DNA of 64,000 nt, taken from contig JAAYEQ010000048.1 of the NCBI GenBank assembly GCA_012728655.1, positions 51,328 through 115,327 on the forward strand, in the 5' to 3' direction. A program made the translations under genes and the position numbers. A model generated the notes under the pieces. It saw only the letters and a list, made by a program, of their open reading frames with translations, did not search any database and was not told the origin of the DNA. Shown here one piece after another: positions 13,878 through 45,720 of this stretch (position 1 is its first letter; every line of letters begins with the position of its first letter). This DNA is from Syntrophomonadaceae bacterium. GTDB lineage: Bacteria; Bacillota; Syntrophomonadia; Syntrophomonadales; DTU052.

Positions 13878-15347
13878 ATGCTAACCGGCGAGATTCGCAA
13901 TAAGGTTGACAAGATATGGACCGATATATGGGCGGGAGGTATTACCAACCCGTTAACCGTTATTGAGCAGCTTACATATCTGATGTTTATCCGGTCGCTG
14001 GATGAGAAGGAACTGGAAAACGAGAGAATGGAGGCTTTGACCGGGGAACCCATGCCGAAAATCTTCCCCCAAAACGAAGCCGGACAGTCCATGCGCTGGA
14101 GCAAGTTTAAAAACAAAGACCCCCGCCAGATCTATGATATCATCCAAAACAGAGTATTCCCGTTTATAAAAGAAATGAACGGTATCAACAACTCTGCATT
14201 TTCCCGCTATATGCAGGATGCCATGTTCCTGATCCCCACACCCCAGGTACTGCAGAAGATTATCACCGGCTTGGAGGAACTCTATGAACACGATATCAAA
14301 GACTTTGATATGCAGGGGGACCTCTATGAATACATGCTGAGCAAACTATCCACTGCGGGTCAAAACGGCCAGTTCAGGACTCCCAAACAGATCCGCGACA
14401 TGATGGTCCGCCTCCTGGCGCCGACACCTAATGACAAGATCTGCGACCCAGCCTGCGGTACAGCGGGATTCCTGGTTTCATCAGCGGAGTATATAAGGGA
14501 AAAATATGAGTTAGAGATGACATCCAACCAGTGGGAGCATTTTTCAGGGCCGATGTTCACCGGCTTTGATACCGATCGGACCATGTTGCGCATATCGGCT
14601 ATGAATCTGATGCTCCACTCCATCACCCAGCCCCGCATTGAGTATATGGACAGCGTTTCCAAGCAAAATACCATCGACTCGGCCTATGACATAATCCTGG
14701 CCAACCCGCCCTTTAAGGGTACTGTCGATGCGGAGAGCATTAATGAAAATCTGAAGCGGGTATGTAACACCAAAAAGACAGAGCTGTTATTTGTAGCGCT
14801 CTTCCTGCGGATGCTCCGCAAGGGCGGGCGCTGTGCCTGTATCGTCCCGGACGGTGTTCTGTTCGGCACCACCAAAGCCCACAAGGCCCTGCGCAAGGAA
14901 TTGGTCGAAAACCATAAACTGCAGGCGGTCATCTCCATGCCCAGCGGGGTTTTCAAACCTTATGCCGGGGTCAGTACCGCCGTCCTTGTGTTCACCAAGA
15001 CCGGGGCTGGTGGGACCGAGAAGGTTTGGTTTTACGATATGAAGGCTGATGGCTACTCCCTGGACGACAAGCGTACCCCCATCGAGGCGAACGACATCCC
15101 CGACATCATTGCCCGTTTCCACAACCTTGAAGGTGAGGTAGACCGCAAACCCACCGAGCAGAGCTTCCTGGTGGACAAGTCGGCCATCGTCGCCAATGAC
15201 TACGACCTATCGATCAACCGCTACAAAGAGTTCGTCTACGAAAAGGTGGAATACGACCCGCCAGCGGTGATACTTGACCGCCTCGACAAGTTACACCAGA
15301 ATATTGCCTCCAAAATGGAGGAGTTAAGGGGGCTTATCGGTGGGTAA
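13878..15347 (+). CDS. hsdM: Type I R-M N6-adenine methyltransferase subunit
   Basis: GQFRTP, DPACGTAGFL (motif I), NPPF (motif IV). Confidence 0.95.
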   Translation: MLTGEIRNKVDKIWTDIWAGGITNPLTVIEQLTYLMFIRSLDEKELENERMEALTGEPMPKIFPQNEAGQSMRWSKFKNKDPRQIYDIIQNRVFPFIKEMNGINNSAFSRYMQDAMFLIPTPQVLQKIITGLEELYEHDIKDFDMQGDLYEYMLSKLSTAGQNGQFRTPKQIRDMMVRLLAPTPNDKICDPACGTAGFLVSSAEYIREKYELEMTSNQWEHFSGPMFTGFDTDRTMLRISAMNLMLHSITQPRIEYMDSVSKQNTIDSAYDIILANPPFKGTVDAESINENLKRVCNTKKTELLFVALFLRMLRKGGRCACIVPDGVLFGTTKAHKALRKELVENHKLQAVISMPSGVFKPYAGVSTAVLVFTKTGAGGTEKVWFYDMKADGYSLDDKRTPIEANDIPDIIARFHNLEGEVDRKPTEQSFLVDKSAIVANDYDLSINRYKEFVYEKVEYDPPAVILDRLDKLHQNIASKMEELRGLIGG

Positions 15348-16515
15348 GTGGGAGATGGTGAAGTTGGGGGAAGTTACAACAGTCGTTTCTGGTTCAACTC
15401 CAAAAACATCAGTAAATGAATACTGGAATGGAGAACATAATTGGGTCACACCTGCTGAATTGAATGATTCAGTAATTATGGTGTACGAGACTGAACGAAA
15501 AATTACTAATAAAGCAATAGAAGATTATAACTTAACACCGTTACCTTTAGGGACAGTATTACTTACATCACGAGCTCCTATAGGCAAGGTTGCAATAGCA
15601 GGGGTTGAGATGTATTGCAACCAAGGCTTTAAGAACATAATTTGCTCAGATAAGATACACAATAAATATTTGTTTTGGTTTCTAAAAGGAAGAACCGATT
15701 TCTTGAATTCTCTTGGCAGAGGTGCAACTTTTAAAGAGATTTCAAAATCAATTGTAGAGCAAATTCAGGTGCCTCTCCCTCCCATCGAAACCCAAAAGCA
15801 AATTGCCAAAACCCTGGATACAGTAGCCGAACTGCTTGCCATGCGCAAACAGCAGCTTGCAGAGTTGGACAATCTGATCAAATCCACCTTTTACGATATG
15901 TTCGGCGACCTGGAACACAATTCGTGTGGTTGGGAAGAAAGGCCATTAAAGGACATTGCTGAAATTGTATCCGGTATTACTAAGGGCAGAAAGCTCAGAG
16001 AAACCGAGACAAAAGTCATTCCATATTTAAGAGTGGCTAATGTTCAAGATGGATACCTTGACTTGACAGATATTAAATATATCGAAGTCGCCGATTCCGA
16101 AATAGAAAAATATCGCTTATTTAAAGGTGACTTGTTAATGACCGAAGGTGGAGATCCCGACAAACTTGGCCGTTGCGCCATATGGAACGAAGAAATACCA
16201 TTTTGTATTCACCAAAATCACATTTTTAGAGTTAGGCTTGACCAAAAACGCGTTCTGCCCGAATATGCATGTTTCTTGATTCAAAGTCCTTATGGCAAAA
16301 AATACTTTTTAAAAGCGGCTAAACAAACTACCGGGATTGCGTCTATCAACTCGAAGCAAATAAGCAACTTCCCATTATTGATTCCTAATATAAAGCTGCA
16401 AACTAAATTCGCCGAAATAGTTACCAAGTTCGAGGAACCAAAAGCCATGGTGCAGAAGGCCATTGATGAAACCCAGTACTTGTTTGACAGCCTGATGAGC
16501 GAGTATTTCGATTGA
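15340..16515 (+). CDS. hsdS: Type I R-M specificity subunit (two TRDs)
   Basis: WEMVKLGE, PLPPIETQKQIA conserved regions; two variable AT-rich TRDs. Confidence 0.93.
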   Translation: MGKWEMVKLGEVTTVVSGSTPKTSVNEYWNGEHNWVTPAELNDSVIMVYETERKITNKAIEDYNLTPLPLGTVLLTSRAPIGKVAIAGVEMYCNQGFKNIICSDKIHNKYLFWFLKGRTDFLNSLGRGATFKEISKSIVEQIQVPLPPIETQKQIAKTLDTVAELLAMRKQQLAELDNLIKSTFYDMFGDLEHNSCGWEERPLKDIAEIVSGITKGRKLRETETKVIPYLRVANVQDGYLDLTDIKYIEVADSEIEKYRLFKGDLLMTEGGDPDKLGRCAIWNEEIPFCIHQNHIFRVRLDQKRVLPEYACFLIQSPYGKKYFLKAAKQTTGIASINSKQISNFPLLIPNIKLQTKFAEIVTKFEEPKAMVQKAIDETQYLFDSLMSEYFD

Positions 16516-37723: not shown

Positions 37724-39724
37724 GTGGAAATCTTGCATATATATCTGGCTGACCACGCCGGGTTTTGTTATGGGGTAAAACGGGCGGTCGACCTGGCATT
37801 GAATGCACCGGCGGAAGAAGGTCCCTGGTATACGTTGGGACCCTTGGTGCACAACCGGGAGGTTGTGGGTTTTTTAGCGGATAAGGGCATTGCTTCCGTG
37901 GATGATATCGATGAGATAACCGACGGCGGCGTGATTATCCGCTCCCATGGCATACCTCAGGAGGTTCAATCGGAGATTGAATCGCGAGGATTGAGGATAA
38001 TCGATGCCACCTGTCCCCATGTCAAGCAGGTCCAGGAACTGGCTCAAAAGCTGGTCGATGAACACTATCAAGTGGTGATTGTGGGAGACAAGGACCATCC
38101 CGAAGTCCAGGGGATCTGGAGCCGGGCAGGCAATAACTCCCTGGTTGCCCGCATGCCGGAAGATGTTGCCGATTTGCCGCCCTGTAACAAAATTGCCGTG
38201 ATCTGCCAGACCACAATTCAGGAAACGGAGTACCGGCAGGTTGTACAAGCACTGATTTCGCATGCAAGGGAGATCAGGGGATATAACACCATATGTAATG
38301 CCAGTTTGAAACGACAAGAGGCTGTCGCCGAACTGGCAGGTCACGTCGATCTGATGATAGTTATTGGAGATCGCAAAAGCTCCAATACCAGGTCTCTGGT
38401 TAAGATCTGTGAAGACAGAGAGGTTGCTACCTATCAGATAGAAACCGCTGAGGAGCTCAGGCCTGAATGGTTTGAAGGGAAGAAAGACGTGGGTGTTACT
38501 GCAGGTGCTTCTACTCCAGATTGGGTAATTAAGGAGGTATTGAGTCGGATGTCGGAGCTGGAGAGCAATGCAGCACAGGATGAACAAGCTTTAAACACCA
38601 GCAGTAACCAGGAAGAAACATTTGCCGAACTCGAGGCGGAGATGGCCGAGTTCATGAAGGAAGTCGAGAGGGGTACCATCCTCAAGGGACGTGTGGTTCA
38701 CATTGGCCCGGACGAAGTAATGGTAGATGTCGGCGGCAAGTCTGAGGGAATCATTCCTTTAAAGGAACTCTCCCTGCACGAGATTAGTTCTCCCAGTGAG
38801 GTAGTCGCAGTAGGCGATGAGATCGATGTGATGGTTTTGCGCTGGGATGATGATGGTACCATTCTGGTTTCCAAACGCAGGGTTGACCAGGAACTCGCCC
38901 TCGATGCCCTGGAGGCGGCGGCAAGGGAAGGAACTCCGGTTTCAGGCAAGGTGATAAAAACCATTAAAGGTGGTCTCCTGGTAGACGTAGGGGTAACCGG
39001 TTTCTTACCCGCTTCCCAGGTTGAAGAAGGTTTTGTCCGGGATCTGGAAAAGTATGTCGGGCAGGAATTGACTTACGAGATTCTGGAGTTCAACCGTCAG
39101 AAGCGGAGAGGTTCCCAGGTTGTCCTTTCCCGTTCCCGCCTACTTGAAAAGGAGAAAGAAGCCCGGAGAAAACAGTTCTGGGATGAGATAGCCGAGGGAC
39201 AAATCAGGAAAGGCGTAGTTAAGAGGATTACCGAATATGGCGCCTTTATCGACCTGGGCGGTTTTGAGGGACTCTTACACGTATCCGAGATCGATCACGC
39301 CCGGGTAGCGCGACCTGAGGATGTCCTGACTGAGGGAGAAGAGATTGAGGTATATGTGCTGGGGGTCGACCGTGAGAACGAACGGGTCTCCCTGAGCCGG
39401 AAGAAGGTTATCCCCAGTCCCTGGGAGAGGATCGCAGAGAAGTTGACGGTGGGCGAAGTCGTGACCGGTACAGTGGTTCGCATCGCGCAATTCGGAGCTT
39501 TCGTAGAGTTGGAACCCGGTATTGACGGGTTGGTCCATATTTCCCAACTGGCGGACAGGAGAGTGGCGAAGACCGAAGATGTGGTTCAGGTTGGGCAGGA
39601 AGTCAAGGTCAAAGTCATCAGCATGGATACCGAAGCCAAAAGGATAGGCCTGAGCATTAGGGAAGCGGAACTGGAGGCGGATAAAGAAACTGTGGCAGCT
39701 TACCTGGAGAGCCAGGATGATTAG
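37724..39724 (+). CDS. ispH: Bifunctional HMBPP reductase / ribosomal protein S1
   Basis: AGFCYGV, DATCP, TICNA, SSNT, GVTAGASTP, then four S1 repeats; start may be TTG 37733. Confidence 0.93.
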   Translation: MEILHIYLADHAGFCYGVKRAVDLALNAPAEEGPWYTLGPLVHNREVVGFLADKGIASVDDIDEITDGGVIIRSHGIPQEVQSEIESRGLRIIDATCPHVKQVQELAQKLVDEHYQVVIVGDKDHPEVQGIWSRAGNNSLVARMPEDVADLPPCNKIAVICQTTIQETEYRQVVQALISHAREIRGYNTICNASLKRQEAVAELAGHVDLMIVIGDRKSSNTRSLVKICEDREVATYQIETAEELRPEWFEGKKDVGVTAGASTPDWVIKEVLSRMSELESNAAQDEQALNTSSNQEETFAELEAEMAEFMKEVERGTILKGRVVHIGPDEVMVDVGGKSEGIIPLKELSLHEISSPSEVVAVGDEIDVMVLRWDDDGTILVSKRRVDQELALDALEAAAREGTPVSGKVIKTIKGGLLVDVGVTGFLPASQVEEGFVRDLEKYVGQELTYEILEFNRQKRRGSQVVLSRSRLLEKEKEARRKQFWDEIAEGQIRKGVVKRITEYGAFIDLGGFEGLLHVSEIDHARVARPEDVLTEGEEIEVYVLGVDRENERVSLSRKKVIPSPWERIAEKLTVGEVVTGTVVRIAQFGAFVELEPGIDGLVHISQLADRRVAKTEDVVQVGQEVKVKVISMDTEAKRIGLSIREAELEADKETVAAYLESQDD

Positions 39725-39769
39725 CAACCATAAGGTGTTGCTCACTGTTTGAAGAAGGAGGGTATTAAA

Positions 39770-39997
39770 GTGCCATTCTTCGATTTTAAGTGCGAGAAGT
39801 GTGGACACCAGTTTACCCTGCGGGTTTCCAATGAAGAAAAGTCCAAGGTTAAATGCGAGAAATGCGGGCATTCCCGGGTAATTCAATTGTTGTCGCCCTT
39901 CTTTGCACCCGGGAGCAAAGCCGACTCCGGCCGTCGGGTAATGCCGGGGCCAAATTGTGAAGGATGCAGCAGCGCAGGGATGGGATGAGGCCTATAA
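39770..39997 (+). CDS. FmdB-family zinc-ribbon protein, candidate selenoprotein (UGA 39986-39988 = Sec, then Gly-Leu-stop); ends at 39988 if UGA is a stop
   Basis: MPFFDFKCEKCG..CEKCG..NCEGC; AGGAGG RBS before GTG; SECIS-like hairpin follows the UGA. Confidence 0.8.
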
Positions 39998-40022
39998 AGC
40001 TGCCGGTCTGGCAGCTTTTTTT
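39996..40022 (+). promoter_or_regulatory. SECIS-like hairpin that doubles as an intrinsic terminator
   Basis: AAAGCTGCC-GGTCT-GGCAGCTTT plus T run; loop begins 16 nt after the UGA. Confidence 0.65.
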
Positions 40023-40107
40023 GTATAATGAGCCAAGAGCTTGGTCACCAAGAACATCTTCACCGCCGGAGTTTTTCTATGGTGGAGGAAAGAGCCGGGT
40101 AGTTGTT

Positions 40108-40731
40108 ATGTCTAAGAGCAGGAAAGTAAAAGCGTCCGGTATTGTACTGGCCGGTGGGCGCAGTACCAGAATGCAAGTCAATAAGGCGTTCACTGAGGTC
40201 GGGGGACTGAAACTGATTGATAATGTCCTGGGCAAGGTATCCGAGGTCTTCGATGAGGTGATTCTGGTCACCAATGACCCGGAAAGCTACTTTTGTTACG
40301 CCGACGAATCAGTCCGCATTGTCAGCGATCTTATTCCCGGCAAAGGGCCGCTTTCCGGGATACATGCCGGTCTATATTGCGCCCGTTATGACGTGACCCT
40401 GGCGGCAGCATGTGATATGCCGTTTCTGAATATGGATCTGGCCGTGCATATGATTGATATGCTCGGAGACCACGATGGCGTAGTTCCCCGTATTGGAGAG
40501 TATTTCCAACCGCTGTTCGCTGTATATACCAGACGTTGCCTGCCGATTATTGAAGAGTCGCTTCTGCTTGACCGGCTTAAACTGAGCGACATTTATGAGT
40601 CCCTCGATATCTTATATGTTAACGAGAAAGAGATCCGCAGGTTTGGGGATCCGGCGGTGATCTTTTATAATATCAACAACCGCGAAGACCTCAAGCATGC
40701 TGAAGGTTTGGTCAAGAAGGTGATCGTATAA
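40108..40731 (+). CDS. mobA: Molybdenum cofactor guanylyltransferase
   Basis: IVLAGGRSTRM..NKA, GPLSGIHAGL, ACDMPF, NIN..EDL. Confidence 0.9.
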   Translation: MSKSRKVKASGIVLAGGRSTRMQVNKAFTEVGGLKLIDNVLGKVSEVFDEVILVTNDPESYFCYADESVRIVSDLIPGKGPLSGIHAGLYCARYDVTLAAACDMPFLNMDLAVHMIDMLGDHDGVVPRIGEYFQPLFAVYTRRCLPIIEESLLLDRLKLSDIYESLDILYVNEKEIRRFGDPAVIFYNINNREDLKHAEGLVKKVIV

Positions 40732-44384: not shown

Positions 44385-44975
44385 CTAGTAAGTTTCAACA
44401 AATACTTCGAAATAAGCCTGGGGATGCAGGCAGGCCGGGCAGACCTCGGGTGCTTGCGGACCTTCGTGGACATAGCCGCAGTTGCCGCATTTCCAGGCTA
44501 CCGGGGTATCCTTTTTGAATACCTGGCCATTCTCGATATTGGCGGCCAGTTTTTGATACCTAATATCGTGGCGTTTTTCTGCCAGGGCGATCATCTTAAA
44601 GGCGGCGGCAATCTGGGGGAACCCTTCTTCCTCGGCAACTTTGGCGAACTCAGGATACATATCATGCCACTCCTCATATTCGCCTTTGGCCGCTGCCTTC
44701 AGATTGTCCAGAGTTGTTCCCTGAGCAATCGGGAAAGAAGCGGTAATTTCAAGTTCAGCCGGCAGCTCATCGCCCAGACCTTCGAGCAGGAACTTCCAGA
44801 AGCGCTTGGCGTGTTCCTTTTCGTTGTCGGCGGTTTCAATAAAGATGTTCTTAATCTGTTTGTAGCCTTCCTTGTCGGCAATAGAAGCATAGTAGGTGTA
44901 ACGCATGCGTGCCTGTGATTCTCCGGCGAAGGCTTTCATAAGATTGATTGCGGTTTTGGTACCTTTCAAATTCAT
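44385..44975 (-). CDS. rbr: Rubrerythrin
   Basis: AFAGESQA, EKEH, EKRH di-iron motifs; WKCGNCG..CPAC rubredoxin domain. Confidence 0.95.
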   Translation of the reverse strand: MNLKGTKTAINLMKAFAGESQARMRYTYYASIADKEGYKQIKNIFIETADNEKEHAKRFWKFLLEGLGDELPAELEITASFPIAQGTTLDNLKAAAKGEYEEWHDMYPEFAKVAEEEGFPQIAAAFKMIALAEKRHDIRYQKLAANIENGQVFKKDTPVAWKCGNCGYVHEGPQAPEVCPACLHPQAYFEVFVETY

Positions 44976-45083
44976 AAATTAATACCTCCCCATGTTTTTA
45001 TTCGACAATTATGCACTTGGGTTAATCGCTGACAGACCGGGTAATGACAAGCAACCGGTATTGATCAGGGTCATGCTTGGATT

Positions 45084-45665
45084 TTATTTTTCAAAGTTGG
45101 CCTGAACAAAATCCCAGTTGATGATGTCCCAGAACTTTTCTACATAGGCCTGTCTCGCATTGCGATAGTCAATATAGTAGGCATGTTCCCACACGTCGCA
45201 GGTAAGCAATGGTGTTTTTCCTTCGGTTATGGGGTTGCCGGCATTGCTGGTACTTACGATTTCCAGCTTGCCGTCGCCGTCTTTGACCAACCACGCCCAG
45301 CCGGAACCAAAAGTCCCAACCGCCGCCGCTATGAACTTTTCCTTAAAGGCAGCCAGGGAACCGAAATGCTCATTTATGGCTTCGGCCAGTTTTCCGGTCG
45401 GACCCCCGCCTCCGTTGGGACTCATGCAGTTCCAATAAAAGGTGTGGTTCCATACCTGAGCGGCATTATTAAATATGCCTCCCGATGACTGTTTGATGAT
45501 GTCTTCCAGAGTCATATCCTCATAGTTGGTTCCAGCAATCAGCTTGTTGAGGTTGTCAACGTAGGCTCGGTGATGCTTTCCGTAGTGGTAGTCGATGGTT
45601 TCGGGGGAGATTACCGGACTGAGAGCTTCTCGTGAATAGGGTAATTCCGGTAATTTATGTTCCAT
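45084..45665 (-). CDS. sodB: Fe superoxide dismutase
   Basis: [16 protein letters not shown] (Fe-type AAQ), DVWEHAYY. Confidence 0.93.
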
Positions 45666-45720
45666 TCGTAAACACCTCTTTCCCTCTTGTTCTTGAATCA
45701 AGGTGGACTTGTTAATGTGA

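Follow-up and report, generated by a model that had tools for sequence, protein, structure and literature searches.

A predicted selenocysteine codon close to the C-terminus of an FmdB-type zinc-ribbon protein in Syntrophomonadales, with a SECIS-type hairpin past the stop codon

The window analysed here is a stretch of 64,000 nucleotides from the genome of a Syntrophomonadaceae bacterium (order Syntrophomonadales; assembly GCA_012728655.1, contig JAAYEQ010000048.1). It contains a short gene for which an earlier note, made from the letters of the window, had proposed an FmdB-type zinc ribbon ending in a UGA-encoded selenocysteine (Sec). The features of the locus are as follows.

37724..39724, plus strand: ispH-rpsA fusion, upstream, a conserved neighbour in the order
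39755..39761, plus strand: Shine-Dalgarno-like site (AAGGAGG in the sequence), 8 nt 5' of the GTG start
39770..39997, plus strand: whole gene including the UGA predicted to be read through, for a 75-aa FmdB/Ruc-type zinc-ribbon protein with the tail C63-x2-C66-x6-U73-G-L; stop TAA at 39995-39997
39770..39901, plus strand: N-terminal zinc ribbon, residues 1-44, with C8, C11, C29 and C32; AlphaFold pLDDT 85-88 over residues 1-40
39902..39994, plus strand: predicted flexible Gly/Ser-rich tail with Cys63, Cys66 and the predicted Sec73; pLDDT 44-54 over residues 41-75
39986..39988, plus strand: in-frame UGA, predicted Sec codon
39996..40018, plus strand: SECIS-type hairpin of 9 bp, loop GGUCU at 40005-40009, nearly all in the 3' untranslated region
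40016..40022, plus strand: U7 run after the G+C stem, a putative intrinsic-terminator-like tail by its sequence shape
40108..40731, plus strand: mobA-like gene, downstream, given as context

The frame opens at GTG 39770 and runs for 72 codons to ...NCEGCSSAGMG, after which come TGA (39986-39988), GGC, CTA and TAA (39995-39997). This end, and the position of the gene between ispH-rpsA and mobA, are exactly as the earlier note had read them. A type 2 IPP isomerase gene is also found among the neighbours. The protein belongs to the FmdB family, scoring 52.3 bits against TIGR02605 (cut-off 31.3) and 47.1 against PF09723 (cut-off 34.4). Its ribbon carries two N-terminal CxxC motifs, 17 residues apart, whose four cysteines (C8, C11, C29 and C32) are invariant in 53 orthologs. 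In the AlphaFold model, residues 1-40 form a ribbon predicted with confidence and residues 41-75 a tail of low confidence. Among named relatives, the nearest bear the labels Syntrophothermus sp., Syntrophomonadaceae and Syntrophomonadales. A Foldseek search of the PDB with the ribbon model returned weak, generic zinc-ribbon and zinc-finger matches, none at E <= 0.001; PDB sequences searched by profile gave generic zinc ribbons and zinc fingers only, and the ESM Atlas gave FmdB/Zn_ribbon_8 clusters only. NCBIfam 20.0 was found to hold no selenoprotein model for the read-through protein, and an Rfam search gave no match near the gathering score.

A hairpin follows the UGA. Its stem arms, AAAGCUGCC (39996-40004) and GGCAGCUUU (40010-40018), enclose the loop GGUCU (40005-40009) and are followed by UUUU. 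The 9-bp stem starts inside the TAA stop, and 16 nt separate the UGA from the loop; stem, loop, spacing and U run had all been described before and were confirmed in the sequence. The 45-nt stretch from the UGA onwards has a folding energy of -14.7 kcal/mol (z -2.28, equalled by 1 of 200 shuffles), and the hairpin alone one of -13.5 kcal/mol. The bacterial SECIS consensus calls for a loop of 3-9 nt with G in its two opening positions and then G or U, a stem of 4-16 bp, a spacing of 16-37 nt and an energy below -7.5 kcal/mol (PMC13188914). As scored by a script written for this analysis, the hairpin falls within that consensus in loop, spacing, stem and energy; the 16-nt spacing lies at the lower edge of the published range, which counts against it. 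It differs from the consensus in lying past the stop codon instead of in coding sequence, and in carrying an A-tract and a U7 run in the manner of an intrinsic terminator (PMC13188914). The position past the stop leaves the stem free of coding constraint. As a measure of chance, a G(G/U)-loop hairpin at 16-24 nt was found behind 6 of the 608 predicted genes of this genome that end in TGA, 18 of 835 that end in TAA and 5 of 551 that end in TAG, as counted with a gene caller of our own which missed the short zinc-ribbon gene. Among the six TGA genes are an MvhD-like gene with an in-frame TGA and a second Sec candidate, described at the end.

The genome encodes the machinery for Sec insertion. 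selA, selB, tRNA-Sec and selD were found on one contig (C12), all above cut-off, as the proposal of a Sec codon had called for, and selD itself contains an in-frame TGA. So do three formate dehydrogenase (FDH)-type genes, FdhA and two more. Genome-wide motif and coding-score screens for selenoproteins were noisy; FdhA, the two other FDH-type proteins, SelD, and an HdrA-like and an MvhD-like protein were accepted. The latter two, named from motifs (G000:C16:17121 and C16:18725, plus strand), have in-frame TGA codons and G-led hairpins and are predicted further selenoproteins of this genome. The fdhA SECIS, GCC-GGUCU-GG, lies 18 nt after its UGA, and its apical letters are identical to those of the hairpin described here. 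Other G-led SECIS-like hairpins of the genome stand 17 nt (selD) and 20 nt (the mvhD-like gene) behind the UGA.

A search of the order gave a match in 57 of 60 genomes, at 59 loci; 56 proteins were read, and removal of two that represent another paralog left 54 orthologs, in which, as in every phylum and metagenome count below, kin are not independent. Homologs with Cys aligned to the UGA, which the earlier note had named as a mark of Sec, were sought and found: TGA stands at the site, followed by 2-4 codons, in 37 of the 54 orthologs, and in 12 a TGT or TGC codon is aligned to it, with the same short tail. The other orthologs have a Cys-richer tail (three), no Cys (one) or an apparent frameshift (one). 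TGA and Cys forms were found side by side within single genera (genome pairs G009/G007, G037/G047, G029/G027 and G020/G053). The second stop of the 37 UGA forms is TAA in 19, TAG in 14 and TGA in 4, and the codon after the UGA varies synonymously, Gly being written by all four of its codons. Of the Gly-Leu tail proposed in the earlier note, the part that stood is the presence of 1-4 residues before a variable stop; the letters are not conserved (G-I, A-I-R, G-x-R-F, A-R and others). The upstream rpsA gene ends in TGA at only 2 of the 36 UGA loci where its stop is readable, and the UGA is therefore not fixed by stop-codon habit. The G(G/U) loop is present in 34 of the 37 UGA forms, the exceptions being G031 (AUUU), G023 and G040 (both UUG).

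Counting against the Sec reading, 14 of 16 non-TGA orthologs lie in genomes that still have selA. In its favour, no sel gene or FDH was found in G053, which has a Cys form. G050 (92% complete) counts against it, having a UGA form although no selA, selB, tRNA-Sec or selD was found there. The sel genes of G050 are likely on a missing contig, because its three FDH-type genes carry in-frame TGA. In a quick tree of the 45-column ribbon, which is mostly unresolved and cannot date the origin of the UGA form, Cys forms stand among UGA forms. Two orthologs (L045:1714-1762 of G044 and L054:397-445 of G039) have a second TGA three codons after the first (U-G-I-TGA-Y-TAG), where their relatives have G-x-R-F/Y. 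Double read-through may occur in these two; the second TGA is probably a stop, because the loop is only 12 nt away. The apparently frameshifted ortholog (L076 of G046) seems to change frame after the ribbon; read in the other frame, it would have the ending of the Cys form in its genus.

A profile built from this order matched 212 of 301 Bacillota genomes, with 413 matches in all; phylum counts were taken from the best 150 of these, and the 142 best outside the order were read. Outside the order the matches divide into Cys-tailed paralogs, with a CxxC end and any stop, and forms ending in F-G/S/T or GG. With the groups defined by protein ending alone, TGA follows the protein end in 40/40 F-[GST], 33/33 GG and 15/70 CxxC cases among 194 Bacillota rows (best 150 of 413 matches). 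In total, 95 UGA forms were counted, 37 in the order and 58 outside it (phylum counts from the best 150 of 413 matches), with L108 (G322) and L196 (G136) taken as UGA forms and L198 (472 aa, unrelated) left out. Conservation of the loop, a point on which the earlier note had staked its reading, was borne out in the same best 150 of 413 matches: a G(G/U)-loop hairpin at 16-24 nt was found in 86 of the 95 UGA forms (shuffled mean 0.9, maximum 3), and nine fail the test. The 58 forms outside the order use 43 different stem arms (best 150 of 413 matches), so structure and loop are kept while the stem letters change. Under the published bSECIS model, with the hairpin alone at or below -7.5, 72 of the 95 UGA forms fit, and 87 do so at -5, compared with 1 of 17 Cys-tailed paralogs ending in TGA (all from the best 150 of 413 matches).

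The UGA form also follows the Sec machinery. selA was found in 93 of the 95 genomes with a UGA form (best 150 of 413 matches), and the 20 classified loci from 21 selA-less genomes include a single UGA form among those best 150 matches, in G324, which lacks selA but has selB, tRNA-Sec and selD. A distant, high-G+C subgroup was used to scan metagenomes; 80 of 546 loci, without taxonomy, were kept, and 79 of these were read. TGA followed by 1-4 codons was found in 48 of these, and the hairpin in 43 of the 48 compared with 2 of the 31 others. Among database proteins, the same cut ending is seen under the labels Acidobacteria, Fibrobacter, Desulfomonile and Desulforamulus, judging from protein ends alone.

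With the sel genes, the Sec/Cys pairs, the conserved loop on changing stems and the loss of the form in genomes that do not use Sec, the UGA at 39986-39988 is very likely read as Sec, giving the tail CxxC-x6-U-G-L as first proposed. By the standard bacterial route, SelB-GTP-Sec-tRNA would bind the GGUCU loop with the ribosome positioned at the UGA, the G+C core of the hairpin starting 11 nt after that codon; two further codons would then be read before TAA ends the protein. When selenium is absent, the UGA would act as a stop and yield a 72-aa form. The fuller reading, of a zinc-ribbon gene whose UGA is decoded through the hairpin 16 nt on and whose tail is likely a Se-S redox switch, is judged highly probable from sequence comparison.

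As to the tail, a Cys is kept in all 95 UGA forms among the best 150 of 413 matches, in 91 before the Sec, and the four forms without a Cys before the Sec are exactly the four with one after it. This suggests a Se-S redox arm. Sec73 would pair reversibly with a tail Cys and be recycled by thioredoxin and thioredoxin reductase, and the Se-S pair would sense or buffer oxidation for the four-Cys zinc ribbon. The distance from Cys to Sec varies from 2 to 14, and a single tail Cys is found in 37/95 Bacillota UGA forms (best 150 of 413 matches) and 36/48 metagenome forms; variable spacing and frequent single Cys are more easily reconciled with a flexible Se-S pair than with a metal site. Thiol-redox genes (TrxR, Trx, DUF1462-like and CoA-disulfide-reductase/rhodanese) lie within ~1.5 kb of 22 of the 58 UGA forms outside the order and of none of 74 Cys-tailed paralogs, in the best 150 of 413 matches and with queries that were themselves drawn from the neighbours of UGA forms. 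The 22 loci represent 13 families, and thioredoxin-system neighbours are commoner than mobA among UGA forms outside the order (best 150 of 413 matches). A redox neighbour is absent at the locus of this genome, and only 4 of the 48 metagenome forms have one. An arm recycled by thioredoxin is somewhat more likely than not from these patterns, and a redox arm is favoured over a second metal site, a chaperone trigger or a role in cofactor maturation.

A second metal site would also take the UGA as Sec, with Sec73, Cys63 and Cys66 binding zinc, an Fe-S cluster, copper, mercury or similar. This is conceivable though unlikely. Cys-tailed paralogs have four tail cysteines, as Cx2Cx4Cx2C or Cx4Cx2Cx2C, in 55 of 75 cases, two or three tail cysteines are present in 58 of the 95 UGA forms (both from the best 150 of 413 matches), and in many forms of the order Sec occupies the last Cys position. 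However, a separate site would need more ligands than the forms with one tail Cys noted above possess, the distance between Cys and Sec is variable, and the tail is unstructured in the model.

Ruc (Rv0991c) presumably belongs to TIGR02605, going by the description of that model. That the protein is a holdase chaperone of the Ruc type, switched on by oxidation and with its Sec tail serving as a sensitive trigger or reset, would not exclude a redox arm and is distinctly unlikely. Ruc has the same layout as the protein described here, a four-Cys zinc ribbon of ~50 aa (CxxC-N17-CxxC) followed by a disordered C-terminal region, and its oxidation releases zinc and switches on holdase activity (PMC7448276). 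It differs in that its description mentions no Sec or conserved tail Cys, its tails being hydrophilic and without conserved residues, in the shortness of the tail here, and in its link to chaperone genes (PMC7448276), which were not found among the recurring neighbours within 1.5 kb here. The likeness to Ruc was drawn from its description, and a second FmdB-family paralog of this genome may be the closer Ruc relative. This paralog (G000:C47, ~15147-15450, plus strand) has 100 aa, a long charged tail and an FKGSGFY motif, and ends at TGA without a short tail.

The earlier note had also tied the gene, speculatively, to Se/Mo formate dehydrogenase maturation through its mobA neighbour, and this link proved weak. 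That the Sec protein serves molybdenum/tungsten cofactor or FDH maturation together with MobA is improbable, even though 33 of the 37 UGA forms in the order have mobA behind them, mobA-like genes come after FmdB-type genes with other kinds of tail in 9 more genomes outside the order, and this genome has the three TGA-containing FDH-type genes. mobA was found within ~1.5 kb of only 3 of the 58 UGA forms outside the order (best 150 of 413 matches), and a mobA match near none of the 48 metagenome forms. Within the order mobA also stands behind Cys and non-Sec forms, so the linkage tracks the rpsA locus and not the Sec state; moreover, G008 has lost mobA from the site, and a terminator-like site separates the zinc-ribbon gene from mobA. 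In one other family (L131, L133, L171, L183, L210 and L239) an FmdB-type ribbon lies between rpsA and mobA; its Cys tail is longer (C..C....GCGKY) and lacks a Sec signal, and a UGA form is retained elsewhere in some of these genomes. In the spacer before mobA of the window, a possible second stem (CUUCACCG ... UGGUGGAG, 40059-40089) was seen by eye, covering a GGAGG 18 nt before the mobA ATG. Further on, 4.4-5.7 kb downstream (44385-45701, minus strand), are what we take to be rubrerythrin-like and superoxide-dismutase-like ORFs.

The hairpin also has the shape of an intrinsic terminator, its G+C-rich stem being directly followed by the U-run (6-bp core, -10.1 kcal/mol, UUUUUUUG). It is the sole terminator-like site in 39600-40200; since shuffles yield 0.5 +/- 0.8, the scan alone is no evidence. 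A U-run, defined as 5 or more U in 8, follows the hairpin in 32 of the 37 UGA forms in the order, compared with 9 of the 58 in other Bacillota (best 150 of 413 matches) and 1 of 47 metagenome loci. With an A-tract before it and a U-run after it, the hairpin of the order is likely also an intrinsic terminator behind rpsA and the zinc-ribbon gene. Against this, the U-run is rare outside the order, a co-oriented mobA begins 110 nt after the stop, and just 8 of the genome's 58 terminator-like sites are found 12 nt or less from a stop. RNA contigs from four digester metatranscriptomes cover parts of the gene at a depth of 2-14, with a contig gap over the hairpin in one run, and contigs cannot show ends. 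A promoter scan near the gene found none; a TATAAT at 40024-40029 has no -35 element and is not conserved in the genus. That transcripts really end at this hairpin is, from its sequence, fairly probable.

Whether one stem could serve both purposes is informed by the forms that have lost one of them. The stem is kept in 13 of the 17 non-Sec forms of the order, but just 3 of these 13 also have the G(G/U) loop, and in G009 the UGA and loop are kept and the U-run is lost. Loop and U-run thus behave as separable traits on one stem, and a double role fits this lineage only. Such a role, SECIS and terminator in one hairpin, is plausible within this order. One job would precede the other, with termination on the nascent RNA and SelB binding on the finished RNA. 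In Bacillus subtilis, terminators are reported to lie hard against stop codons and transcription outruns translation (PMC7858274), which would let the two occur in turn. A single literature search turned up no description of a bacterial SECIS that doubles as a terminator.

An ordinary stop at this UGA, with the hairpin as an intrinsic terminator only and a 72-aa protein ending in ...GMG, is very improbable: the textbook shape of hairpin and U7 run, the stem persisting in non-Sec orthologs, the UGA form of G050 with its undetected sel genes, and the database copies of the UGA type, which all end at the UGA with no returned protein carrying U, would suit it, but the TGA is fixed whereas the rpsA stop and the second stop vary, it aligns with TGT/TGC, the G(G/U) loop and its distance of 16-24 nt persist on changing stems, with U-runs rare outside the order, and the UGA form is almost confined to Sec-using genomes.

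With the UGA taken as Sec, the protein can be set beside known selenoproteins. Two GOS reads carrying a CxxU motif are the source from which FmdB-family (TIGR02605/COG2331) selenoproteins were predicted (PMC2398784), and Sec in this family has been tabulated as U/CxxU (PMC9312934) and UxxU (PMC13188914); the latter source counts different Sec positions as different subfamilies. The GOS proteins share the domain family, and their Sec was likewise deduced from UGA/Cys pairs and a bacterial SECIS. In the present form, by contrast, the ribbon cysteines are invariant and Sec lies 1-4 residues from the C-terminus, the GOS position being known by the listed motif (PMC2398784). The catalogued CxxU or UxxU motif is absent from the protein of the window, whose nearest Cys is 7 residues before the Sec, and CxxU spacing occurs in 1 of the 95 UGA forms (best 150 of 413 matches). 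The C-terminal form is absent from the 2026 table of 119 families in PMC13188914, and neither literature searches nor look-ups of terms in PMC12013277, in PMC13326102 and in the SAO paper on bioRxiv found it, BSepDB being outside their scope.

SaoC, which ends in Cys-Sec-COOH, is a further case of a C-terminal Sec cut off by annotation, with a GGU-loop SECIS past the stop (bioRxiv 10.1101/2022.07.06.499078). As described there, it differs in belonging to an unrelated lipoprotein family of the SAO operon, with a terminal CU motif in 3/52 members. As an analogy in how it works, selenoprotein S carries its Sec near the end of a disordered tail and has a partner Cys upstream of it (Cys174-Sec188); it is an unrelated ER membrane protein that uses a eukaryotic 3'-UTR SECIS and machinery (PMC3628699).

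It is quite possible, if short of an even expectation, that these are widespread, uncatalogued tiny selenoproteins, each a zinc ribbon with a SelS/TrxR-like Sec arm recycled by thioredoxin and cut in every database, and that in this order one 27-nt element serves as SECIS and terminator, with natural variants that lack the loop or the U-run. A common selenoprotein subfamily would thereby be added to anaerobes, with 95 Bacillota genomes (best 150 of 413 matches) and 48 metagenome loci. Standard searches miss it because only 1-4 residues follow the UGA. The Sec would mark the tail as the reactive part, which offers a handle on the poorly understood FmdB/Ruc family. In addition, a SECIS in the 3'-UTR, without coding constraint, would show the minimal bacterial signal as any stem with a G(G/U) loop at 16-24 nt.

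The same screen gave a second hidden C-terminal Sec candidate, outside the window (G000:C44:24555-24767, plus strand; locus L247:1501-1713), which suggests that the annotation blind spot is general. This candidate of 68 aa belongs to no Pfam or NCBIfam family and ends in ...LAIKCVT-[TGA]-R-stop, with the hairpin AACCCUCU-GGU-GGAGGGUU 17 nt after the TGA. No Cys homolog was seen among its 14 homologs in 60 genomes. Of these homologs, 13 end in TGA, one residue and a stop, and the single TAG-ending homolog has no Cys. Their stems differ and their loops are mostly GG or GU. In 12 of the 13 a Cys stands three residues before the TGA (CxxU-x-COOH), and distant ones end in C-N-R.
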